Source of the DNA: Acidimicrobiia bacterium | GTDB taxonomy: Bacteria > Actinomycetota > Acidimicrobiia > Spongiisociales > JAHEDJ01 | DNA length: 63,399 nt | Direction of reading: 5' to 3' | Assembly: GCA_029210695.1 (NCBI GenBank) | Contig: JARGFH010000015.1 | Location: 1 to 63,399, forward strand | In this document: positions 17,254 through 40,411 of the stretch, piece by piece | Layout of the letters: each line of letters begins with the position of its first letter | Position numbering within the stretch: the stretch's first letter is position 1 | The notes under the pieces: generated by a model | Seen by the model: the letters and a program-made list of their open reading frames with translations, nothing else | What the model was told of the DNA's origin: nothing | The model's database searches: none | Made by a program: the position numbers and the translations under genes

Positions 17254-18909
17254 TCAAGCAGTTCTCCTTCGCATCATCACGAAGGCGAGTCCACCGAGGA
17301 CCACGACGGCGGCAATGATGCCGACGACGAGTCCGGTGCTCGAAGACTCATCCTCGACGGGGTCTGCCGCTGCCACGGTGGAGGTCGGGGCTGCTTCAGT
17401 CGTCGTCGTGGTTGGGGCTTCAGTTGTGGTAGTGGTTGTCTCTGGCTCTGGTTCCGGCCCTGGAGGGAACACCGTCAGTTCGGCTACACGTCCCTCGTCA
17501 AACCCAAGGGTCGCGAAATCAAGGCGACCATCTTCGGAGTGGCATGCCTGGCATTCGAGTGCACTGGTTGCGGGAGCAACCATGTGGTTCTGCGGCCAGT
17601 ACATCACCGATTCGATGTTCTCGTAGCTGCCGGAGTATTCCAGGCCATAGGCGGTGGCGGCATCTGTGATGGCTGCGCTCATGTCCCAGAACTTCCAGAA
17701 TGCTGTGGTGTCTGCTTCACCAGATGGGAATAGGTTGAGCGGCATTACTGCTTGGGCCACCGGATCGTAGGGCTGGATGCCCTCGAACTCCTTGAACGGG
17801 GCGATCTTGCCATCTCCTGGTCCGCCGAGTACCTCGTTGATCAGGAAGCCTTCGTCCTGGGCAACAGGCTCGCCTGGTAGCGACCAGTCGAAGTTGCCGT
17901 TGGACCACAGGTACGTCGGTACAACGTTGGACTCCCACAGGAAGCTGCCCTTAAGGCTGTCGTAGACCGGCTTCCCGGTGGCTTCGTCGTCGACGATCTT
18001 GATCGATCCGTCTTCGTTCCGGTCGCCGGCGGTTGTCCAATCCCAGAACTCTTTGGTCGGTTGGGCGCGGGCGTACTCCGGAATGTGGCAGGTCTCACAT
18101 GCGATCGAAGCTGTGTGGGCATTGATTGCATCTTCGTCGTGCGGCTCTTCGGTGTGACAGTCGTCACAGCCGATAGCGCCCATCTCGTACCTACTACCGG
18201 CGATCTGGTGATCCTCGGTCGTGTGGCACGTCTGACAGGTGAAGTTGAGTCCTTCAGCATCCATGTGGACGTCCAGCTCGAAACCTGGTTCCTTGAGCGA
18301 TGTGTCCAGATCGCCGTGCTTGACGGCATCGCCGCCGCCGCCGGTGAAGTGGCACGCACCGCAGTTGGCCCTGCTGGGCTTTCCGACGCCCTGGGCAACA
18401 GAAACAAGGTCGACTGCAGGCCAATCCTTGCCGCTGAAGGTGGTGTCCTCGTAGGCGGGGTGACCGGCGCCGGTCGGGAACTTCTTGTATGTACCAGTCG
18501 TATCGTGGCAGACGACGCAATCGATGTTGCCGGGATTCGAGTGGTCGAACGATTCGTCCGTCCAACCGTAGCCCGCATGACAACTGGTGCAGCGCGGCTC
18601 GTTGGTCCGTACGTTGACGCAGTAGTTGTTGAGCACCTGGTACTTGCCGTAGGTCTCTCCGGTTGTGGCACTTTCGTATTCCCACGTCCAGTGAACCGTC
18701 TGCATGAAGTCCTCGCCGACTCCGGCGTGACACGTCAGGCAGGCTGCCGTGACATCCGGTGCGGTTTCGAACGGTCCCTCCAGCGGGCCGAACCCGGAAT
18801 GGTCCATCCCCTCACTCTCTTGCGCAGATACCGCAACACCCAGAGTCAGCAACATGCTGAACGCGAGTATCAGGGCGCCTGCTCTTCTGATGGCCTTTGA
18901 TGCCTTCAT
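17254..18909 (-). CDS. Octaheme c-type cytochrome of the tetrathionate reductase (Otr) family with a C-terminal membrane anchor
   Basis: 8 CxxCH motifs (CLTCH, CTSCH, CVVCH, CGACH, CQTCH, CDDCH, CETCH, CQACH); GK...NNYC, EPRCTSCHAGYG and GGGGDAVKHGDLD; signal peptide; Thr-rich stalk, TM helix and RRR tail. Confidence 0.88.
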   Translation of the reverse strand: MKASKAIRRAGALILAFSMLLTLGVAVSAQESEGMDHSGFGPLEGPFETAPDVTAACLTCHAGVGEDFMQTVHWTWEYESATTGETYGKYQVLNNYCVNVRTNEPRCTSCHAGYGWTDESFDHSNPGNIDCVVCHDTTGTYKKFPTGAGHPAYEDTTFSGKDWPAVDLVSVAQGVGKPSRANCGACHFTGGGGDAVKHGDLDTSLKEPGFELDVHMDAEGLNFTCQTCHTTEDHQIAGSRYEMGAIGCDDCHTEEPHDEDAINAHTASIACETCHIPEYARAQPTKEFWDWTTAGDRNEDGSIKIVDDEATGKPVYDSLKGSFLWESNVVPTYLWSNGNFDWSLPGEPVAQDEGFLINEVLGGPGDGKIAPFKEFEGIQPYDPVAQAVMPLNLFPSGEADTTAFWKFWDMSAAITDAATAYGLEYSGSYENIESVMYWPQNHMVAPATSALECQACHSEDGRLDFATLGFDEGRVAELTVFPPGPEPEPETTTTTTEAPTTTTTEAAPTSTVAAADPVEDESSSTGLVVGIIAAVVVLGGLAFVMMRRRTA

Positions 18910-19082: not shown

Positions 19083-20033
19083 ATGTTGACCACCAACGAG
19101 CTTCAGGTTTTCCTTGCCGCAGCCGAGACCGAGAACTTCTCCGAGGCAGGTCGACGGCTGGGGGTGTCTCAGCCGGCCATCAGCATGCAGATCAAAGCGT
19201 TGGAGGATCGACTGGGCCTCGAGCTCTTCCAACGGTCGGGGCGCCACATCTCACTCTCTGAAGCGGGTCGAGCGCTCATTCCGATGGCCAGGGAGACAAT
19301 CGAGCGGGTGATCGGAATCGAAGAGACGATGGCTTCGCTCCAAGGAGAAGTCGTTGGTCTCCTCCGGTTGGCCTGCTCGACCACCGCCGGCAAGTACATA
19401 CTCCCGCCGCTGCTGGCGGGCCTCATGGCTCGACACCCACAGGTTGAGGTCGTGTGCCAGGTGACGCAGCGTGAGGCAGCGCTCGATACATTACGGAGGG
19501 GCGATGCCCATATCGCGCTGACGAGCCTGAGGATCCCGTTCAAGGATGTCGAGTACCGGCCTTTCCTGACCGACACCATCGTCCTGGTTGTGCCGCCGGA
19601 TCATCGGTGGGCAGTAGCCAAGAAGCCAATTCTTCCTGAGGATCTCGCCGAGGAGCATTTCATCGTCCGAGAATCGACATCGGGCACTCTCGATGCGGTC
19701 CGGCAGGGCCTCGAGTGGCACAATCTGAGCCTCGACCATCTCAACACGATCATGACGCTCGGGAATGCAGAAGCCATTCGTATGGCAGTGCAGGAGGGAA
19801 TCGGCGTCGCCTTCGTATCGGCCATGGTCGCACTCGAGGCGGTCGAAACGGGCAAGCTGGCCGTCGTCGAGGTCGAAGGGCTCGAACTGGAGAAGACACT
19901 GTATATGGCTCGCGATACCGACCGGCCCGCTACCAGGGCGCAAGCTGCATTCTGGGATTGGGCATTCGACCCGCAAAACGAACACATCAGGCGCAGACCA
20001 ACGCTTCGCGACGGGGCGCCGCTGGCTCTGTAA
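19083..20033 (+). CDS. LysR family regulator (CysL / selenium-metabolism-associated type)
   Basis: FSEAGRRLGVSQPAISMQIKALE HTH; RESTSGT and EAIRMAVQEGIGVAFVS. Confidence 0.92.
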   Translation: MLTTNELQVFLAAAETENFSEAGRRLGVSQPAISMQIKALEDRLGLELFQRSGRHISLSEAGRALIPMARETIERVIGIEETMASLQGEVVGLLRLACSTTAGKYILPPLLAGLMARHPQVEVVCQVTQREAALDTLRRGDAHIALTSLRIPFKDVEYRPFLTDTIVLVVPPDHRWAVAKKPILPEDLAEEHFIVRESTSGTLDAVRQGLEWHNLSLDHLNTIMTLGNAEAIRMAVQEGIGVAFVSAMVALEAVETGKLAVVEVEGLELEKTLYMARDTDRPATRAQAAFWDWAFDPQNEHIRRRPTLRDGAPLAL

Positions 20034-20098: not shown

Positions 20099-20193
20099 TG
20101 GCGGAGGCGGACGGGAATCGAACCCGCCGGGGACCTTTCAGCCCCCCATCGGTTTTGAAGACCGTGGAGCCCACCAGGCGCTCGGTCGCCTCC
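20099..20193 (-). tRNA. selC: tRNA-Sec (anticodon UCA)
   Basis: 95 nt; GGAGGCG/CGCCTCC acceptor with G discriminator and CCA; CT-TCA-AA anticodon loop; long variable arm; GGTTCGATTCC T-loop. Confidence 0.95.
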
Positions 20194-20263: not shown

Positions 20264-21274
20264 ATGTCGAGCCAACTCTCACTCGGTGATTTGATTCAGC
20301 GTCAGCGCGCAGCGTTGGGCCTGACCCAGGCGCGGCTGGCCGAACTCGTCGGCCGGTCCCCCTCGGCGGTTCGGAGCTGGGAGCGCGACCGCGGCGTTCC
20401 GGGAGACCAAGCAGCAATGGCTGCACTGACGGCGGTGCTGGGACTGACGAACGAAGAAGTTCAGAATGCCATTGGAGATCAGGAGGGGGCGGCTGCCGAC
20501 GAAGCCGTGGGACCTGCATTCATCCCTTTGATCGATGCGCCGCTCGATGAGCCCACCCGATCACCTTTGCCTCCGAAACGGACTGAGCTGTTTCCTCGTC
20601 GGGAACCGGTCGCGCACGACAGTCGCCCTCTTCCAGCCGATTTGCCCTTTGATGAGGAGGAGCCAGAGCCTTCGTTTGCGGAACTCACCGACGAGCAGGA
20701 ACCTTCTGTCGATCGGGTCGATTCTCCGACGGTGACCGAGCCGGTGGTCGGTCCCGATAGCGGCGACTCCCTGGAGACGGTTCATCCGCAGCAGCCGGAG
20801 CCTTCTGTCGATCGGGTCGATTCTCCGACGGTGACCGAGCCGGTGGTCGGTCCCGATAGCGGCGACTCCCTGGAGACGGTTCATCCGCAGCAGCCGGAAC
20901 CTTCTGTCGATCGGGTCGATTCTCCGACCGTGACCGATCCGGTGGTCGGGGTTGGGGTGCCCGAGCCTCCGGCATCGGCTCGCCCGCAGACACCGGCGCC
21001 GGGCGATGAGCAACTGGGACTGGAGACAGTGGTTGATCCTGTGGTCTCCGCCGCCCGGCCCGCCTCGAGGCCACCGACCGACCGTGCTTCGAGCGCCGTT
21101 TCTCTGCGGTCCAGGCCCACCTCGTATCTCGATGATCCAGAAGAGTTGCGAACATATCGAACGAGGATCATCTTGACCGCCGTCTTGCTGGTCTTCATGT
21201 TCATCGTGTTGACCTGGGCGGTCGGCGAAGCACGCGACGCATTCGGATTGATATTCGACGAACCGGCCCTTTGA
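20264..21274 (+). CDS. XRE-family HTH protein with a long disordered repeat linker and a C-terminal TM helix
   Basis: QRAALGLTQARLAELVGRSPSAVRSWERD HTH; Pro/acidic linker; IILTAVLLVFMFIVLTW TM. Confidence 0.82.
   Translation: MSSQLSLGDLIQRQRAALGLTQARLAELVGRSPSAVRSWERDRGVPGDQAAMAALTAVLGLTNEEVQNAIGDQEGAAADEAVGPAFIPLIDAPLDEPTRSPLPPKRTELFPRREPVAHDSRPLPADLPFDEEEPEPSFAELTDEQEPSVDRVDSPTVTEPVVGPDSGDSLETVHPQQPEPSVDRVDSPTVTEPVVGPDSGDSLETVHPQQPEPSVDRVDSPTVTDPVVGVGVPEPPASARPQTPAPGDEQLGLETVVDPVVSAARPASRPPTDRASSAVSLRSRPTSYLDDPEELRTYRTRIILTAVLLVFMFIVLTWAVGEARDAFGLIFDEPAL
20699..20949 (+). repeat. In-frame 99-bp tandem repeat (about 2.5 copies, 33 aa unit)
   Basis: EPSVDRVDSPTVTEPVVGPDSGDSLETVHPQQP units start at 20699, 20798 and 20897 and are nearly identical. 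Confidence 0.95.
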
Positions 21275-21482
21275 CCTCAGTTGAGGATGACCTTCACGGC
21301 CACGCCGAGCGAGCCAGGCCGGAGGTGATGAGTACTACGTCCTGAAGTGCTGCTCCATCGGCGGAGACCGCGAGGCGATGGCGATCTCGACGGGGGTGAG
21401 CGTCGGGCGAGTGTCGCAGCGGCGTATTGCGCCACCGAATCCCGGGTCCCCCTTTGACTTTGCCTCTTTGGCCCGGCCCTGA

Positions 21483-21722
21483 GAATTGAGAAGCGGGCCC
21501 CCGAGGGAGCCCGCTTCGCGAGATAAGACCAGAGACACTTCATGCGCCGCGAGAGGACCAGCTCGCGGATCTCTCAGTCCCGGTGGTCCGGGTTGGTGTC
21601 GCTACCGATAGCGAGGCGGTTTCCTCGCTGCAAGCGGCACCGATGGCCGCTTAGCGTCCGGCCACCTCCAGAGTCCTACAGAAACATTCACTCAAGTCGG
21701 ACCACCTCCTTTCTCTGGTAGC
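21483..21722 (-). ncRNA. Candidate structured RNA carrying an extended SD and a short ORF
   Basis: AGAAAGGAGGTGGTCC at 21714-21699; at least five hairpins; terminator-like hairpin at 21490-21517; no convincing downstream gene on this strand. Confidence 0.55.
21651..21695 (-). CDS. Putative 14-aa sORF MSECFCRTLEVAGR (TTG start)
   Basis: Perfect SD 8 nt upstream; the stop codon lies in a hairpin loop. Confidence 0.45.
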   Translation of the reverse strand: MSECFCRTLEVAGR

Positions 21723-21780
21723 AGAGATGCTGCCACACCTGAGGCGAAATGACCAGCACTTTTCCCGAGGCCGACTGCCA

Positions 21781-22935
21781 CTAGCTACCGCCGTGACCCA
21801 GGGCCTGATCGAGATCCTCGAGGAGATCATCGATGTGTTCGATCCCGACGGAGAGACGAATCAGATCGGCCGGCACCTCCAGTGCTGTGCCATCGACGGA
21901 GAGATGCGTCATCGCGGCGGGAACCTCGATGAGCGACTCCACCCCGCCCAGGCTCTCTGCCAGGAAGAAGAGCTTCGTGCTGCCGGCGATGCGCCTGGCT
22001 GCACTGATTCCGCCGGCTGGGATCAAAGAGATCATTCCGCCGCCGGCCTGCATCTGCCGGGCGGCGAGGTCGTGCTGCGGGTGAGATTCGAGGCCGGGAT
22101 AGAAGACGTCGACGACGCCCGGGTGCGATTCGAGAAAGCGGGCGATGCGGCCGGCATTTGCGCAGTGACGCTCCATGCGAACTGCCAGCGTCTTCAGACC
22201 CCGTAAGACGAGCCAGGCGTCGAACGGCCCTGCAATCGGTCCGGCGGCATTGATGAGGAACTTGAACCGGGCGAACAAGTCGGGATCTCGTGTAATGAGA
22301 GCCCCTCCGACGACGTCGGAATGGCCGCCCAGGTACTTCGTCGTCGAGTGCAGCACAACGTCGGCACCGAGGTCGAGCGGCCGCTGAAGGTAAGGGGTGG
22401 CGAAAGTGCTGTCAACGACGAACATCGCGTCGGCTTCTCGCGCAACCTCTCCCACCGCGGCGATGTCCACCAGTCTCAGCATGGGGTTGGTGGGAGTCTC
22501 CGCCCAGATCACCCGGGTCGTCGGACGGAGGGCCGTACGCACCAGGCGCTCGTCGGTCATGTCAACCGCCGACCACTCGATTCCTTGTTCGGCGAGAACC
22601 CTGGCGAAGAACCGGAACGTGCCCCCGTATGCGTCGTTGGGAAGGAGGACATGGTCACCCGGCCGGAGTGTGTAGCCGATGATGGAGGTGGCGCTCATTC
22701 CTGAAGAGGTCGCGATCGCCCCTCCGGGTTCGTCTTCCCCGATACCCTCGAGGGCGGCCAGGGCAACCTCGAGGGCCTGTCTGGTCGGATTGCCGGTGCG
22801 CGAATACTCGAACCCGCGATGTTCGCCCGGCGCATCCTGCACGTAGGTCGAGGTGGCGTAGACGGGGACTACCACGGCCCCGGTCGTGGGGTCCGGCTGC
22901 TGGCCAGCATGAATGGCATCAGTCTCGAATCGCAT
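21781..22935 (-). CDS. metB: Cystathionine gamma-lyase/synthase
   Basis: YSRTGNPT, ETPTNP, HSTTKYLGGHSD and AESLGGVESL. Confidence 0.93.
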   Translation of the reverse strand: MRFETDAIHAGQQPDPTTGAVVVPVYATSTYVQDAPGEHRGFEYSRTGNPTRQALEVALAALEGIGEDEPGGAIATSSGMSATSIIGYTLRPGDHVLLPNDAYGGTFRFFARVLAEQGIEWSAVDMTDERLVRTALRPTTRVIWAETPTNPMLRLVDIAAVGEVAREADAMFVVDSTFATPYLQRPLDLGADVVLHSTTKYLGGHSDVVGGALITRDPDLFARFKFLINAAGPIAGPFDAWLVLRGLKTLAVRMERHCANAGRIARFLESHPGVVDVFYPGLESHPQHDLAARQMQAGGGMISLIPAGGISAARRIAGSTKLFFLAESLGGVESLIEVPAAMTHLSVDGTALEVPADLIRLSVGIEHIDDLLEDLDQALGHGGS

Positions 22936-38977: not shown

Positions 38978-40411
38978 GTGTTCGATCCAGCAATGGCGGC
39001 CGTCGAAGGGGCCCTGGCGGCGGGTGCAACCTATGCCGATGCGCGGACGGTAGTGACCCGTCATCAACGACTCGATGCGGCGGACGGGCACATCAGCCGA
39101 ATCAGCGAGGATGAGAAGGCCGGTGTCGGCGTGCGAGCACTGATCGGCTCCTCGTGGGGCTTCTTCGCCGTCAACGACTTCGAGCAATCCCGCGCCGCCG
39201 GGGAGCGGGCGGCGGCCATCGCCGCCGCGTCTGCTCGGGTCCCCGGACAAGCACTGCCGCTGGCCGATGTTCCGGTGGTTGAAGCGTCGTATGCGACTCC
39301 CGTCGAAGTCGACCCGTTCTCGGTTGCGGTAAGCGAGAAAGCGGATCTGCTCGTCGACCTGACGGCTCAAATGATGGCCGGCGAGGGGATCTCACGAACG
39401 AGCGGGAAGCTCGAATTCTGGGATACGAGCAAGTGGTTTGTGTCTTCACAAGGTCACCGGATCAGTCAGCACATCGTTGAGTCCGGAGGCGGGATGGACG
39501 CACTCGCTATCGGCGAGGCAGAGTCGCAAGCCCGCTCGTATCCACAGTCGTTTGGACAGTATGAGACGGGCGGATATGAGGTGATCCGCAAGTGGAACCT
39601 GCCGGGCCATACGGCGAGGGTCGCCGAGGAAGCCGCCGCGCTACTGAAGGCCGATCGATGTCCGTCGGCCGTCACCGACGTAATCCTGGACGGCAGTCAA
39701 CTGGCCCTCCAGATTCATGAGTCGGTCGGTCATGCGACCGAACTCGATCGCATCCTGGGGTGGGAGGCTGCCTTCGCCGGGACGTCTTTCCTCGACCTCG
39801 CCCAACTCGGCAAACTTCGCTACGGATCGCAACTCATGAACATCAATGCCGACGCCACGATTCCCGGCGCCCTCGCAACGTTTGGTTTCGACGACGAGGG
39901 AACTCCCGCTCAACGCGTTCCGATCGTCTCCGAAGGGATCTGGGTTGGGGTCCTCTCCGGGCGGGATACCGCCTCCATTGCCGGCCTTCCGCCGGGTGGG
40001 ATGGTACGAGCAGATGGACATGCGCGGATCCCCATGGTCCGTATGACGAATGTCGGTTTGGAGCCGGGCCCGCACTCTCTCGAAGAGATCGTCGCCGATA
40101 CGAGGGAGGGGATCCTGATGGAGACCAATCGATCCTGGTCGATCGATGATCGACGGTTGAACTTCCAGTTCGGTTGCGAAATTGGCTGGGAAGTCAAAGA
40201 CGGCCGGATTGGGAGGATGCTCAGAAACCCGACCTACACCGGAATCACGCCTCAATTCTGGGGCTCGCTCGATCGCTTGGCCGGTGGCGACGAGTGGATC
40301 CACTGGGGGACGCCCAACTGCGGAAAGGGCCAACCGGCTCAGGTTGGACATACCGGGCACAGTGCTGCACCGGCCCGTTTTCACGAAGTACGGGTGGGGG
40401 TGTTGGGATGA
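38978..40411 (+). CDS. tldD: TldD metalloprotease subunit
   Basis: HESVGH, FDDEG, VRMTN and CGKGQP; SD GGAGG. Confidence 0.92.
   Translation: MFDPAMAAVEGALAAGATYADARTVVTRHQRLDAADGHISRISEDEKAGVGVRALIGSSWGFFAVNDFEQSRAAGERAAAIAAASARVPGQALPLADVPVVEASYATPVEVDPFSVAVSEKADLLVDLTAQMMAGEGISRTSGKLEFWDTSKWFVSSQGHRISQHIVESGGGMDALAIGEAESQARSYPQSFGQYETGGYEVIRKWNLPGHTARVAEEAAALLKADRCPSAVTDVILDGSQLALQIHESVGHATELDRILGWEAAFAGTSFLDLAQLGKLRYGSQLMNINADATIPGALATFGFDDEGTPAQRVPIVSEGIWVGVLSGRDTASIAGLPPGGMVRADGHARIPMVRMTNVGLEPGPHSLEEIVADTREGILMETNRSWSIDDRRLNFQFGCEIGWEVKDGRIGRMLRNPTYTGITPQFWGSLDRLAGGDEWIHWGTPNCGKGQPAQVGHTGHSAAPARFHEVRVGVLG

Follow-up and report, generated by a model that had tools for sequence, protein, structure and literature searches.

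What kind of gene is it that, on the minus strand of an Acidimicrobiia contig, sets a long complement of the 16S ribosomal RNA (rRNA) 3' tail in front of an open reading frame (ORF) of 14 codons, within a stretch of strong RNA structure? The locus lies at 21483..21722 of contig JARGFH010000015.1 (assembly GCA_029210695.1), of which positions 1 to 63,399 were analyzed; this whole stretch of 63,399 nucleotides is referred to here as the window. A first-pass annotation, made from the letters of the window, had taken the locus for a stand-alone, candidate ribosome-binding RNA that it could not assign to a named family. In our analysis the element is a true but divergent member of the Ms_IGR-5 family (Rfam RF02471), and on balance we lean toward reading it as a stand-alone gene of ~235 nt whose product is a ribosome-actuated RNA, with a fold that would be melted by translation. 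The switch and its output are what we infer, and our leaning applies to the joint reading, in which gene, family and switch are taken together.

Read 5' to 3' on the minus strand, the locus runs from TGG-CAGCAT (21735-21727) through seven bases to ACCAGAG-AAAGGAGGTGGTCC, a TTG codon (21695), 13 more codons and TAA (21653-21651). The complement of the 16S tail, which we call the first Shine-Dalgarno sequence (SD1), is AGAAAGGAGGTGGTCC (21714-21699), and a second Shine-Dalgarno box (SD2), GGAGGTGG (21669-21662), lies inside the ORF; the ORF behind SD1 was read at the coordinates that the first-pass annotation had given it, and the second box that it had noted within the ORF is present. The parts of the locus on which the argument turns are the following.

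21484..21719, minus strand: whole small RNA (sRNA) of ~235 nt, running from a predicted start at A21719 to just past the terminator hairpin
21699..21714, minus strand: SD1, complementary over 16 nt to the 16S 3' tail and free of pairing in the fold that covariation supports
21651..21695, minus strand: short ORF (sORF) of 14 codons, TTG 21695-21693 to TAA 21653-21651, encoding MSECFCRTLEVAGR
21662..21669, minus strand: SD2, the second GGAGGUGG, inside the sORF (codons L-E-V), sequestered by helices P1 and P3

SD1 forms 16 contiguous pairs with the 16S tail, one of them G-U, at -29.9 kcal/mol; no other site in the window, on whichever strand, does better than -21.1 kcal/mol (8.8 weaker), in agreement with the earlier remark that no other SD noticed in the window was as long. 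The complementarity at this locus is far beyond chance. The SD1 16-mer occurs exactly once in the window, and there are two further sites with three mismatches, against 0.9 expected by chance. A contig end truncates the 16S gene of the window genome at model position 1185, so the tail sequence comes from a genome of the same genus (G002), where the sequence quoted by the first-pass annotation, GGATCACCTCCTTTCT, is the true 16S 3' end (positions 1501-1516 of locus L159; the 16S model RF00177 ends at locus position 1514, inside that span). The same 16-mer is present in 24 of 41 related genomes, a count that includes the unpublished genome G010, and the reversed control is present in none; two of the 24 matches (G015 contig 10 and G026 contig 85) are the sRNA's own A-variant box, at the same place as the blastn match to the sRNA. 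SD1 is nearly invariant among 28 order-level sequences, and position 21702 is G or A in relatives, either of which pairs with the U of the 16S tail. The second-best 16S-tail complement in the window is found at 39571-39588 on the plus strand (GGAUAUGAGGUGAUCC, -21.1 kcal/mol, three mismatches to the SD1 box).

At gathering thresholds, Rfam reports nothing at the locus and only a tRNA-Sec elsewhere in the window. A permissive scan gives a full-length match to RF02471 (Ms_IGR-5) at 29.7 bits and E 7e-5, with model positions 1-184 of 184 aligned to 21519-21719 on the minus strand, and the gathering cut-off of 45 bits is not reached. The element has the whole architecture of Ms_IGR-5, namely a 5' helix (P1), a long SD, an ORF of 12-14 codons with its stop 15 nt after GAGGUGG, P3 and P4, the 3' hairpins and a pseudoknot between a loop and the ORF, in a single-copy and probably stand-alone unit; it is single-copy in its own genome as well. 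It departs from Ms_IGR-5 in the length of its ORF (14 codons, not 12), in an additional hairpin (P6) and in the absence of a hairpin that in many relatives sits between P8 and the P7 3' strand. The statement that no named family applies is therefore superseded, and the idea of ribosome engagement stands despite the match to a known family, because RF02471 is without known function.

By blastn the element is found in 40 of 41 related genomes, in all 12 sampled families of the order; this count includes the unpublished genomes G010 and G021. The sole genome without a match is G034 (96% complete). Genome G023 (78% complete) has two matching places (C5:13792-13961 and C12:632399-632569), and all other genomes searched have one. 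When 20 order-level loci were compared with RF02471, 12 matched full length at E <= 0.01 (28.8-47.1 bits) and one passed the cut-off. Most of this lineage is missed by the Rfam model, which is tuned to Actinomycetales, and its cut-off misses whole lineages such as this one. In the opposite direction, a covariance model (R1) built from 28 sequences of this order only, with two unpublished-genome loci left out, scores 189.4 bits on the window (21524-21719).

A search of a named genome collection with the two-box pattern SD1...SD2, as the first-pass annotation had suggested, gave at least 120 loci, 20 of which were scanned with RF02471. Among the loci listed, those above the RF02471 cut-off run from Mycobacterium (L088, 175.8 bits; L071, 172.2 bits), Micromonospora (98.5 bits), Streptomyces (85.2 bits) and Kineococcus (85.0 bits) to Blastocatellia (49.6 bits), Acidimicrobiales (48.8 bits) and a metagenome-assembled genome (MAG) of Acidobacteria (47.7 bits); Rfam calls Ms_IGR-5 actinobacterial, yet Acidobacteria loci pass its cut-off. 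R1 matches 92 of 100 sources full length at E <= 0.01. Among the loci listed, its best named matches are MAGs labelled Actinomycetota or Acidimicrobiia (117-154 bits), it recovers Mycobacterium L088 and L071 full length (49.1 and 47.3 bits, E about 1e-13), and outside Actinomycetota it matches Acidobacteria (18.7-46.5 bits), a Syntrophobacter MAG (34.4 bits) and Leptospira (15.1 bits). The remaining 8 of the 100 pattern-positive loci are unmatched by R1 at E <= 0.01, with the layout visible by eye only; these are L036 (Planctomycetota), L054 (Fibrobacteraceae), L057 (Terriglobia), L060 (Sphingomicrobium), L067 (Seohaeicola), L069 and L080 (Bryobacterales) and L108 (a Rickettsiales-labelled MAG). 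Four further pattern loci (L053, L077, L086 and L132) were set aside as chance matches inside coding regions. Of 151 genomes sampled across the phylum, 62 have one match each (57 of the 145 of good quality), and whole families have none among the genomes searched; the count of 62 includes six unpublished genomes (G041, G057, G086, G120, G126 and G157). Members beyond Actinomycetota include L062, L082, L081, L072, L032, L055 and L068 among others, with Acidobacteria and Blastocatellia passing Rfam's own cut-off, and the loci from Syntrophobacter, Thermodesulfobacteriota, Planctomycetota and Leptospira score 15-34 bits with R1, some of them with longer ORFs of 17-19 codons.

The fold was analyzed in two alignments, one of 28 order-level sequences (A1) and one of 92 sequences of the family (A2), and the structure was curated from RNAalifold and inspection; unpublished genomes were excluded from A1, R1, A2 and all structure and ORF statistics. 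The 253-nt stretch itself folds at -118.8 kcal/mol (z = -3.71), and none of 200 shuffles folds as well. In A1, 96.8% of cells are paired, with double changes in 12 of 36 pairs and none of 500 shuffles as good, and in A2 94.3% are paired, with double changes in 28 of 36 pairs and 631 compensatory cells; when the partners are slid against each other, at most 40% are paired in either alignment. What the analysis shows is the family identity, the fold and the conservation of the ORF, with the long SD retained across the 92 aligned members. The elements of the fold are as follows.

21718-21714 (CCAGA) with 21672-21668 (UCUGG), minus strand: helix P1, 3' strand directly 5' of SD2 and overlapping it
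21666-21658 (GGUGGCCGG) with 21591-21582 (CCGGACCACC, A bulged), minus strand: helix P3, whose 3' strand is the internal 16S-tail look-alike
21656-21652 (CGCUA) with 21604-21600 (UAGCG), minus strand: helix P4, 5' strand holding the first two stop-codon bases
21651-21645 with 21640-21633 (AGCGGCC / GUGCCGCU), minus strand: hairpin P5, from a constrained fold
21629-21623 with 21616-21610, minus strand: hairpin P6, the inner stem of the first-pass annotation, absent in some relatives
21525..21581, minus strand: 3' domain, P7 enclosing hairpin P8
21581-21570 with 21535-21525, minus strand: helix P7, with covariation
21569-21562 with 21553-21545, minus strand: hairpin P8, with covariation
21673..21677 (AGGAC, sORF codons 7-8) with 21554..21559 (GGUCCU, apical loop of P8), minus strand: pseudoknot, with compensatory sets

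In P1, both-side changes are found in 5 of 5 pairs in A2, with one pair, for example, CG in 44, AU in 31 and GC in 12. P3 is 98.6% paired in A1, where one pair is GC in 17 and AU in 11, and 97.5% paired in A2, with both-side changes in 5 of 10 pairs; P4 is 100% paired in A1 and has both-side changes in 5 of 5 pairs in A2. In the 3' domain, 5 of 5 pairs of P7 and 4 of 7 pairs of P8 show both-side changes in A1, and both helices are kept in A2. The P6 region (helix 7) has both-side changes in 5 of 5 pairs, in a poorly aligned, variable region in which only 65.7% of cells pair, and the compensatory variants of P5 (L013, L016 and L024) were read by eye and not counted by the tool. The stems that had been proposed at 21630-21609 (P6) and 21568-21547 (P8), together with the terminator hairpin, are thus retained with compensatory changes in relatives. 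This is not the case for two local hairpins of the same proposal. The one at 21666-21642, with the stop codon in its loop, is 77.7% paired and has no double change, so that it can form but is not part of the conserved fold, and the one at 21592-21579 is 88.6% paired without covariation, with 413 of 500 shuffles at least as good. Neither belongs to the family fold, because the same bases make P3 and P4. The single-sequence optimum, which contains the stop-in-loop hairpin, was likewise rejected as the family fold, being only 76.6% paired across relatives.

The pseudoknot connects the ORF hexamer around GGAC (21677-21672) with the P8 loop (21559-21554). At least its 4-bp core is present in 82 of 92 sequences, at least five pairs form in 74 of 92 (the maximum over 500 loop shuffles being 59), and six pairs form in 37 (shuffle maximum 27). 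The matched changes comprise AGGAC/GUCCU, CGGAC/GUCCG, GGGAC/GUCCC, UGGAC/GUCCA, GGAUG/CAUCC and GUGAC/GUCAC. An alternative in which the ORF GGAC forms a helix with GUCC at the SD1 3' end was dropped in favor of the pseudoknot, because ORF position 43 covaries with the P8 loop; seven of the A-variants of SD1, read by eye, keep the C opposite. The comparison shows the 3' two-thirds of the ORF to be the core of the predicted fold, contributing to P1, the pseudoknot, P3 and P4. The 16S look-alike, CCGGACCACC, is a further point of interest, since in the window it pairs with SD1 at -18.6 kcal/mol and with SD2 at -16.9 kcal/mol. The averages for 33 close sequences are -17.4 (SD1) and -18.0 (SD2) kcal/mol, whereas in 59 distant members SD1 is preferred in 0 of 59, with means of -7.9 (SD1) and -15.7 (SD2) kcal/mol; the look-alike of the window thus differs from theirs in complementing SD1 as well as SD2.

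The ORF is conserved in a way that does not require a conserved peptide. An in-frame start 3-14 nt behind GGAGG, plus a stop, is found in 91 of 92 family members, compared with 4 and 0 ORFs in the other two frames and with a mean of 14 and a maximum of 23 when the spacer and first codons are shuffled. The start codon is ATG in 35, TTG in 35 and GTG in 14, and in six it is CTG by eye; these six (L045, L058, L074, L093, L051, from Acidimicrobiales-labelled MAGs, and L008) have CTG at the homologous start with frame and stop kept. In 90 of 92 the stop codon (TAG 53, TAA 21, TGA 16) follows the GAG of SD2 at a distance of exactly 15 nt. The distance from SD1 to SD2 takes all residues modulo 3 (33/31/28), so the frame is kept by the placing of the start codon and not by a fixed length. 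The ORF has 12, 13 or 14 codons in 40, 14 and 27 sequences, respectively, and 17-19 in three, and residues 2-6 of the peptide are freely variable among relatives. The conserved C-terminal (R/G/W)-T-x-E-V-A/V-x-x lies wholly within the pseudoknot, P1, SD2, P3 and P4. Here synonymous GCC/GCU changes are compensated in the partner strand of P3 (UA 48 / CG 39), and at the next codon the amino acid changes while the pair is kept (GC 30, CG 22, AU 16, UG 14). In our reading, selection acts on whether the ORF is translated and on the RNA fold rather than on the peptide, which is probably a by-product.

What is on record for relatives of the element is consistent with contact with the ribosome. IGR-5 was reportedly found in a Mycobacterium smegmatis screen by Li et al. 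in 2013, and the family has been in Rfam since; the M. smegmatis gene corresponds to ncMSMEG15794c, between MSMEG_5794 and MSMEG_5795. Ms_IGR-5 is on record as validated by RNA-seq in Streptomyces lividans (PMC8079986) and as a transcription unit for an sRNA in S. avermitilis (PMC8780764), and M. smegmatis IGR-5 overlaps ncMSMEG15794c (PMC10454040) and is NAD-capped, starts with A and is described as "validated but yet uncharacterized" (bioRxiv 10.1101/2021.12.14.472595). In M. abscessus and M. smegmatis Ms_IGR-5 is ribosome-protected (PMC4974804). The supplement of that study places the transcription start site of M. abscessus ncMab10731 (Ms_IGR-5) 2 nt before the Rfam match and gives it 70.3 reads per kilobase per million (RPKM) in RNA-seq and 3737 RPKM in Ribo-seq (supplementary files 2 and 5), while for the 14 noncoding RNAs on one supplement page the Ribo/RNA ratio is below 1 in 11 (6C 0.08, signal recognition particle (SRP) RNA 0.27) and above 2 in none (PMC4974804). 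The same source reports "Ms_IGR5" as raised after 1 h of erythromycin (log fold change (logFC) 2.67; 287 genes changed) and after 1 h of kanamycin (logFC 1.14; 73 genes changed). High ribosome occupancy and induction (or stabilization) by two ribosome-targeting drugs in a relative would fit a link between the family and translation status. The searchable literature on Ms_IGR-5, whose coverage does not extend to the founding 2013 description, mentions no SD complement, conserved mini-ORF or function; a smORF described for Rv0812/Rv0813c is unrelated and was discarded.

Taken together, these features suggest how such an RNA might work. In the closed state the P1 loop would enclose the unpaired SD1 and the start codon, with everything from codon 7 to the stop paired, and a 30S subunit could dock via SD1 without unfolding the RNA; indeed, the 16-bp duplex may be what permits loading on so structured a template. 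An elongating ribosome would then have to undo, one after another, the pseudoknot, the 3' strand of P1, P3 and P4, which together make up the entire core that joins the 5' half of the RNA to its 3' half. SD2, predicted to be masked at rest by P1 and the internal 16S look-alike, would be exposed only behind the translating ribosome. Five bases is a normal spacing between an SD and its start codon, and with the stop codon in the A site SD2 would end five bases before the P-site codon, with start-like spacing, such that the anti-SD of the terminating ribosome would meet the freed SD2, which could hold the ribosome and keep the RNA open. The RNA would in this manner alternate between two forms, one closed and untranslated, the other open and occupied by a ribosome, and would report or use the state of translation. 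The open form would free the C-rich strands and the 3' domain, and in this order the look-alike may in addition shut SD1, giving a third, self-closed state.

Several considerations weigh against this reading. The window element is below the Rfam cut-off for RF02471 (29.7 versus 45 bits). Alignment A2 was aligned to the model's own structure and so favors that structure with respect to the nested helices, although the pseudoknot and ORF tests are independent of it, and the shuffle counts overstate the support because related sequences are not independent. The single-sequence optimum (-84.5 kcal/mol) differs from the covariation-supported nested fold (-69.6 kcal/mol without the pseudoknot) and closes SD1, and SD1 may not always be free because in this lineage the 16S look-alike can pair with it. 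The fixed spacing from SD2 to the stop is no proof of ribosome parking, because the contiguity of P3 and P4 also requires it. The authors of the M. abscessus study themselves caution that co-sedimenting particles can yield footprints on noncoding RNAs (PMC4974804). The sole expression hint for this organism is one contig from an RNA library, 96% identical, from which neither the ends nor DNA carry-over can be resolved, and no output in the form of a target, a partner or a phenotype is on record.

The limits of the transcript were approached through the sequence flanking the conserved fold, where two further features are found.

21727..21735, minus strand: extended -10 box TGG-CAGCAT, read in the sequence, position kept in relatives
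21490..21517, minus strand: terminator-like GC-rich hairpin with a poor U tract, from sequence and positional conservation

Order-level relatives have TANNNT-type hexamers (CAATAT, TATATT, TAAAGT and TAGAGT) at the -10 place, mostly behind TGTG. The terminator stem is kept within the genus by the compensatory change CCCUCGGGGG -> CCUCCGGGAG, and other families have different GC hairpins at the same position; the first working alignment, used for the comparison of the -10 box and the terminator, included the unpublished loci L009 and L012. A simple consensus scan of the locus (TTGACA/TATAAT, T-run) found no sigma-70 promoter and no T-rich terminator; such criteria are ill-suited to this GC-rich organism. 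The extended -10 box that had been proposed is present as read and keeps its place in relatives, but is not called by the scan, and both the candidate -10 box and the terminal hairpin rest on their conserved position. The 5' end was predicted at A21719, 7 nt behind the -10 box and at the conserved (Y)AC with which the alignment starts. In metatranscriptome run X7, one 211-nt contig falls wholly within 21495-21705 with 9 differences (96% identical), 21706-21818 is left uncovered, and from 21819 onward the enzyme gene has contigs of its own; these contigs show neither ends nor strand, DNA carry-over is possible and the uncovered parts are not evidence. They hint weakly at a transcript of about this extent (21495-21705) in a close relative. 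The sequencing runs show small shares in all 18 holders, and the DNA runs X1, X2 and X6 are uninformative on expression.

The neighborhood agrees with a gene that stands alone. The strand of the RNA encodes a PALP enzyme and a Cys_Met_Meta_PP enzyme upstream of it, the stop codon of the latter at 21781, and downstream lies a convergent HTH_31 regulator (20264-21274). The RNA is thus followed by its terminal hairpin and a convergent gene and is not a leader, in line with the stand-alone, structured transcript originally envisaged; an 88-amino-acid ORF over the 3' domain has no Pfam match. In each of the 4 loci of the genus that were examined (4 of 4), the Cys_Met_Meta_PP gene precedes the RNA in the same orientation. 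Among 24 order-level loci, PALP or Cys_Met_Meta_PP is adjacent in 5 further loci, a serA-like gene in 3 and a histidine kinase in 4, and L033 and L078 also have a PALP or Cys_Met_Meta_PP neighbor. For 51 named loci, 100 flanking ORFs show GCV_T, Aminotran_4, PNPOx and THAP4_heme-bd in Actinomycetales and unrelated genes in other phyla. No conserved protein partner gene was found beside the RNA at the order-level or named loci, and the small RNA is probably a unit of its own.

The neighbors vary by lineage and yet are often pyridoxal phosphate (PLP) or one-carbon enzymes, being Cys_Met_Meta_PP, PALP and serA-like in the order and PNPOx (pdxH-like), Aminotran_4, GCV_T and a THAP4-type heme-binding protein in Actinomycetales. 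The loci behind this pattern are L003-L031 at order level and, among the named loci, L033, L078, L034, L059, L063, L042, L050, L056, L071 and L084; it may be mere inherited gene order. Further along the window, a tRNA-Sec gene (RF01852, 73.3 bits; 20103-20193, minus strand) lies between a LysR-type regulator (19083-20033, plus strand) and the HTH_31 gene, and a tRNA-Sec is found in the same sRNA neighborhood at the same-genus locus L006 (540-630). A 551-amino-acid multiheme cytochrome c (17254-18909, minus strand; Cytochrome_cB, Cytochrome_C7, paired CXXCH) is unusual for an actinobacterial-type genome.

Against this background, other explanations of the locus can be weighed. The RNA might be a ribosome sponge that titrates 30S or 70S particles via its 16-bp SD:anti-SD duplex, its ORF being translated incidentally. 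A nearly invariant SD1 making the strongest duplex of the window, by 8.8 kcal/mol, would be well suited to this, as would the very high ribosome occupancy relative to RNA level in M. abscessus (PMC4974804). We nevertheless think a sponge unlikely, because binding alone needs no start, open frame or fixed stop, and yet these are kept in 91 of 92 members, because SD2 is masked in the fold, and because the RNA level is modest in M. abscessus (RPKM 70, next to 1794 for SRP RNA and 31841 for RNase P RNA), far too low for global ribosome titration (PMC4974804). The sequestration idea of the first-pass annotation survives to the extent that the design points to direct engagement of the ribosome; in its pure form it leaves the conserved start, frame and stop unexplained. 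It is also improbable, in our judgment, that the product is a functional peptide of 12-14 residues (M-x3-5-[R/G/W]-T-x-E-V-A-x-R) whose synthesis the fold merely tunes. The strong SD, an ORF conserved across phyla and the nearly universal C-terminal E-V-A/V motif are what such a gene would have. Against it, the N-terminal residues and the length vary freely (12/13/14 codons in 40/14/27), a 130-nt 3' domain is needless for a peptide gene, and every conserved C-terminal codon lies within SD2, P3, P4 or the pseudoknot, where both synonymous and amino acid-changing substitutions are compensated on the partner strand, so that RNA pairing explains the codon conservation.

The adjacent enzyme genes raise the question of a cis element of sulfur amino acid genes, either as the 3' untranslated region of the Cys_Met_Meta_PP gene or as a Cys-sensing attenuator. 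Mycobacterial Cys attenuator sORFs contain runs of Cys codons and lie upstream of, and co-oriented with, Cys-pathway genes. The window peptide does have two Cys, and the linkage is as described above (4 of 4 same-genus loci, 5 more of 24, L033 and L078). The two Cys are non-adjacent, however, and their codons are not conserved, being present only in the genus and a few relatives; the RNA is downstream and not upstream of the Cys/Met gene, its hairpin end facing a convergent gene; it has a conserved -10 box of its own; and elsewhere its neighbors are unrelated (serA-like, histidine kinases, GCV_T, Aminotran_4, PNPOx and THAP4_heme-bd). The X7 contigs, which are separate on the RNA and the enzyme gene with none over 21706-21818, point weakly the same way. 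We regard a cis element, including the Cys-sensing sORF suggested earlier, as very unlikely. We give practically no weight to the ideas that the locus encodes a type I toxin, is the decayed remnant of an rRNA or folds as it does by chance, even though a small ORF with a strong SD and an rRNA-related sequence might bring these to mind. Type I toxins are hydrophobic, membrane-active peptides of roughly 20-60 residues, whereas the peptide here has 14 residues, is polar and charged, and is variable, its N-terminal half not being conserved. The rRNA-related sequence complements the 16S tail and is not a copy of it, no rRNA family is found at 21200-21900 even at E <= 10, Rfam finds no tmRNA (transfer-messenger RNA) in the window, and the element is conserved in 12 families of the order and beyond, which rules out chance.

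The reading that we prefer, a ribosome-actuated RNA opened by translation, has parallels in known systems, from each of which it also departs. Dual-function sRNAs such as SgrS/SgrT, RNAIII/hld and SR1/SR1P keep the ORF apart from the base-pairing region, each as its own module, and have a conserved peptide. These have in common with the window RNA their own promoter and terminator, a short translated ORF and a structured regulatory part, but in the window RNA the ORF is the core of the fold and the free part of the peptide is not conserved. Leader-peptide switches, among them the erm leaders, the whiB7 upstream ORF and the amino acid attenuators, act in cis on a downstream gene. They resemble it in that a single ribosome, by translating a very short ORF, determines which of the alternative pairings the RNA adopts, and a relative of the window RNA is induced by ribosome-targeting drugs (PMC4974804), but no gene follows the window RNA, the hairpin end of which faces a convergent gene. 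The prfB (RF2) frameshift site similarly has an in-frame SD-like box, placed so that a ribosome translating the frame meets it with its anti-SD close to a stop codon. In tmRNA, the part that acts as an mRNA is a short ORF among pseudoknots in a stable RNA; in the window no long ORF in another frame follows, and the RNA lacks a tRNA-like domain.

A more tentative possibility, which we advance as a conjecture and hold to be doubtful as it stands, is that the Ms_IGR-5 RNAs are trans-acting counterparts of leader-peptide attenuators. One ribosome, loaded through the exceptionally strong SD1, would unzip the RNA while reading the mini-ORF. Elongation or termination slowed by drugs or stress would keep the RNA open via SD2 and so release the C-rich look-alike strand and the 3' domain, whose targets would be other RNAs or proteins, and in this lineage the look-alike would also shut SD1, making a three-state device.

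For the window alone the significance is modest, in that it contains a subthreshold member, with lineage-specific features, of a known family of unexplained function. For the family, the analysis puts at its heart a complement of essentially the whole free 16S tail and a mini-ORF that doubles as the scaffold of the fold, and does so beyond Actinomycetota too. Together with the published ribosome occupancy and antibiotic induction in a relative, this yields a concrete hypothesis, namely an RNA serving as a read-out of the translation machinery's state. If the trans-acting attenuator reading were true, Ms_IGR-5 would be a widespread sensor of translation status in Actinomycetota, seen in Acidobacteriota as well.

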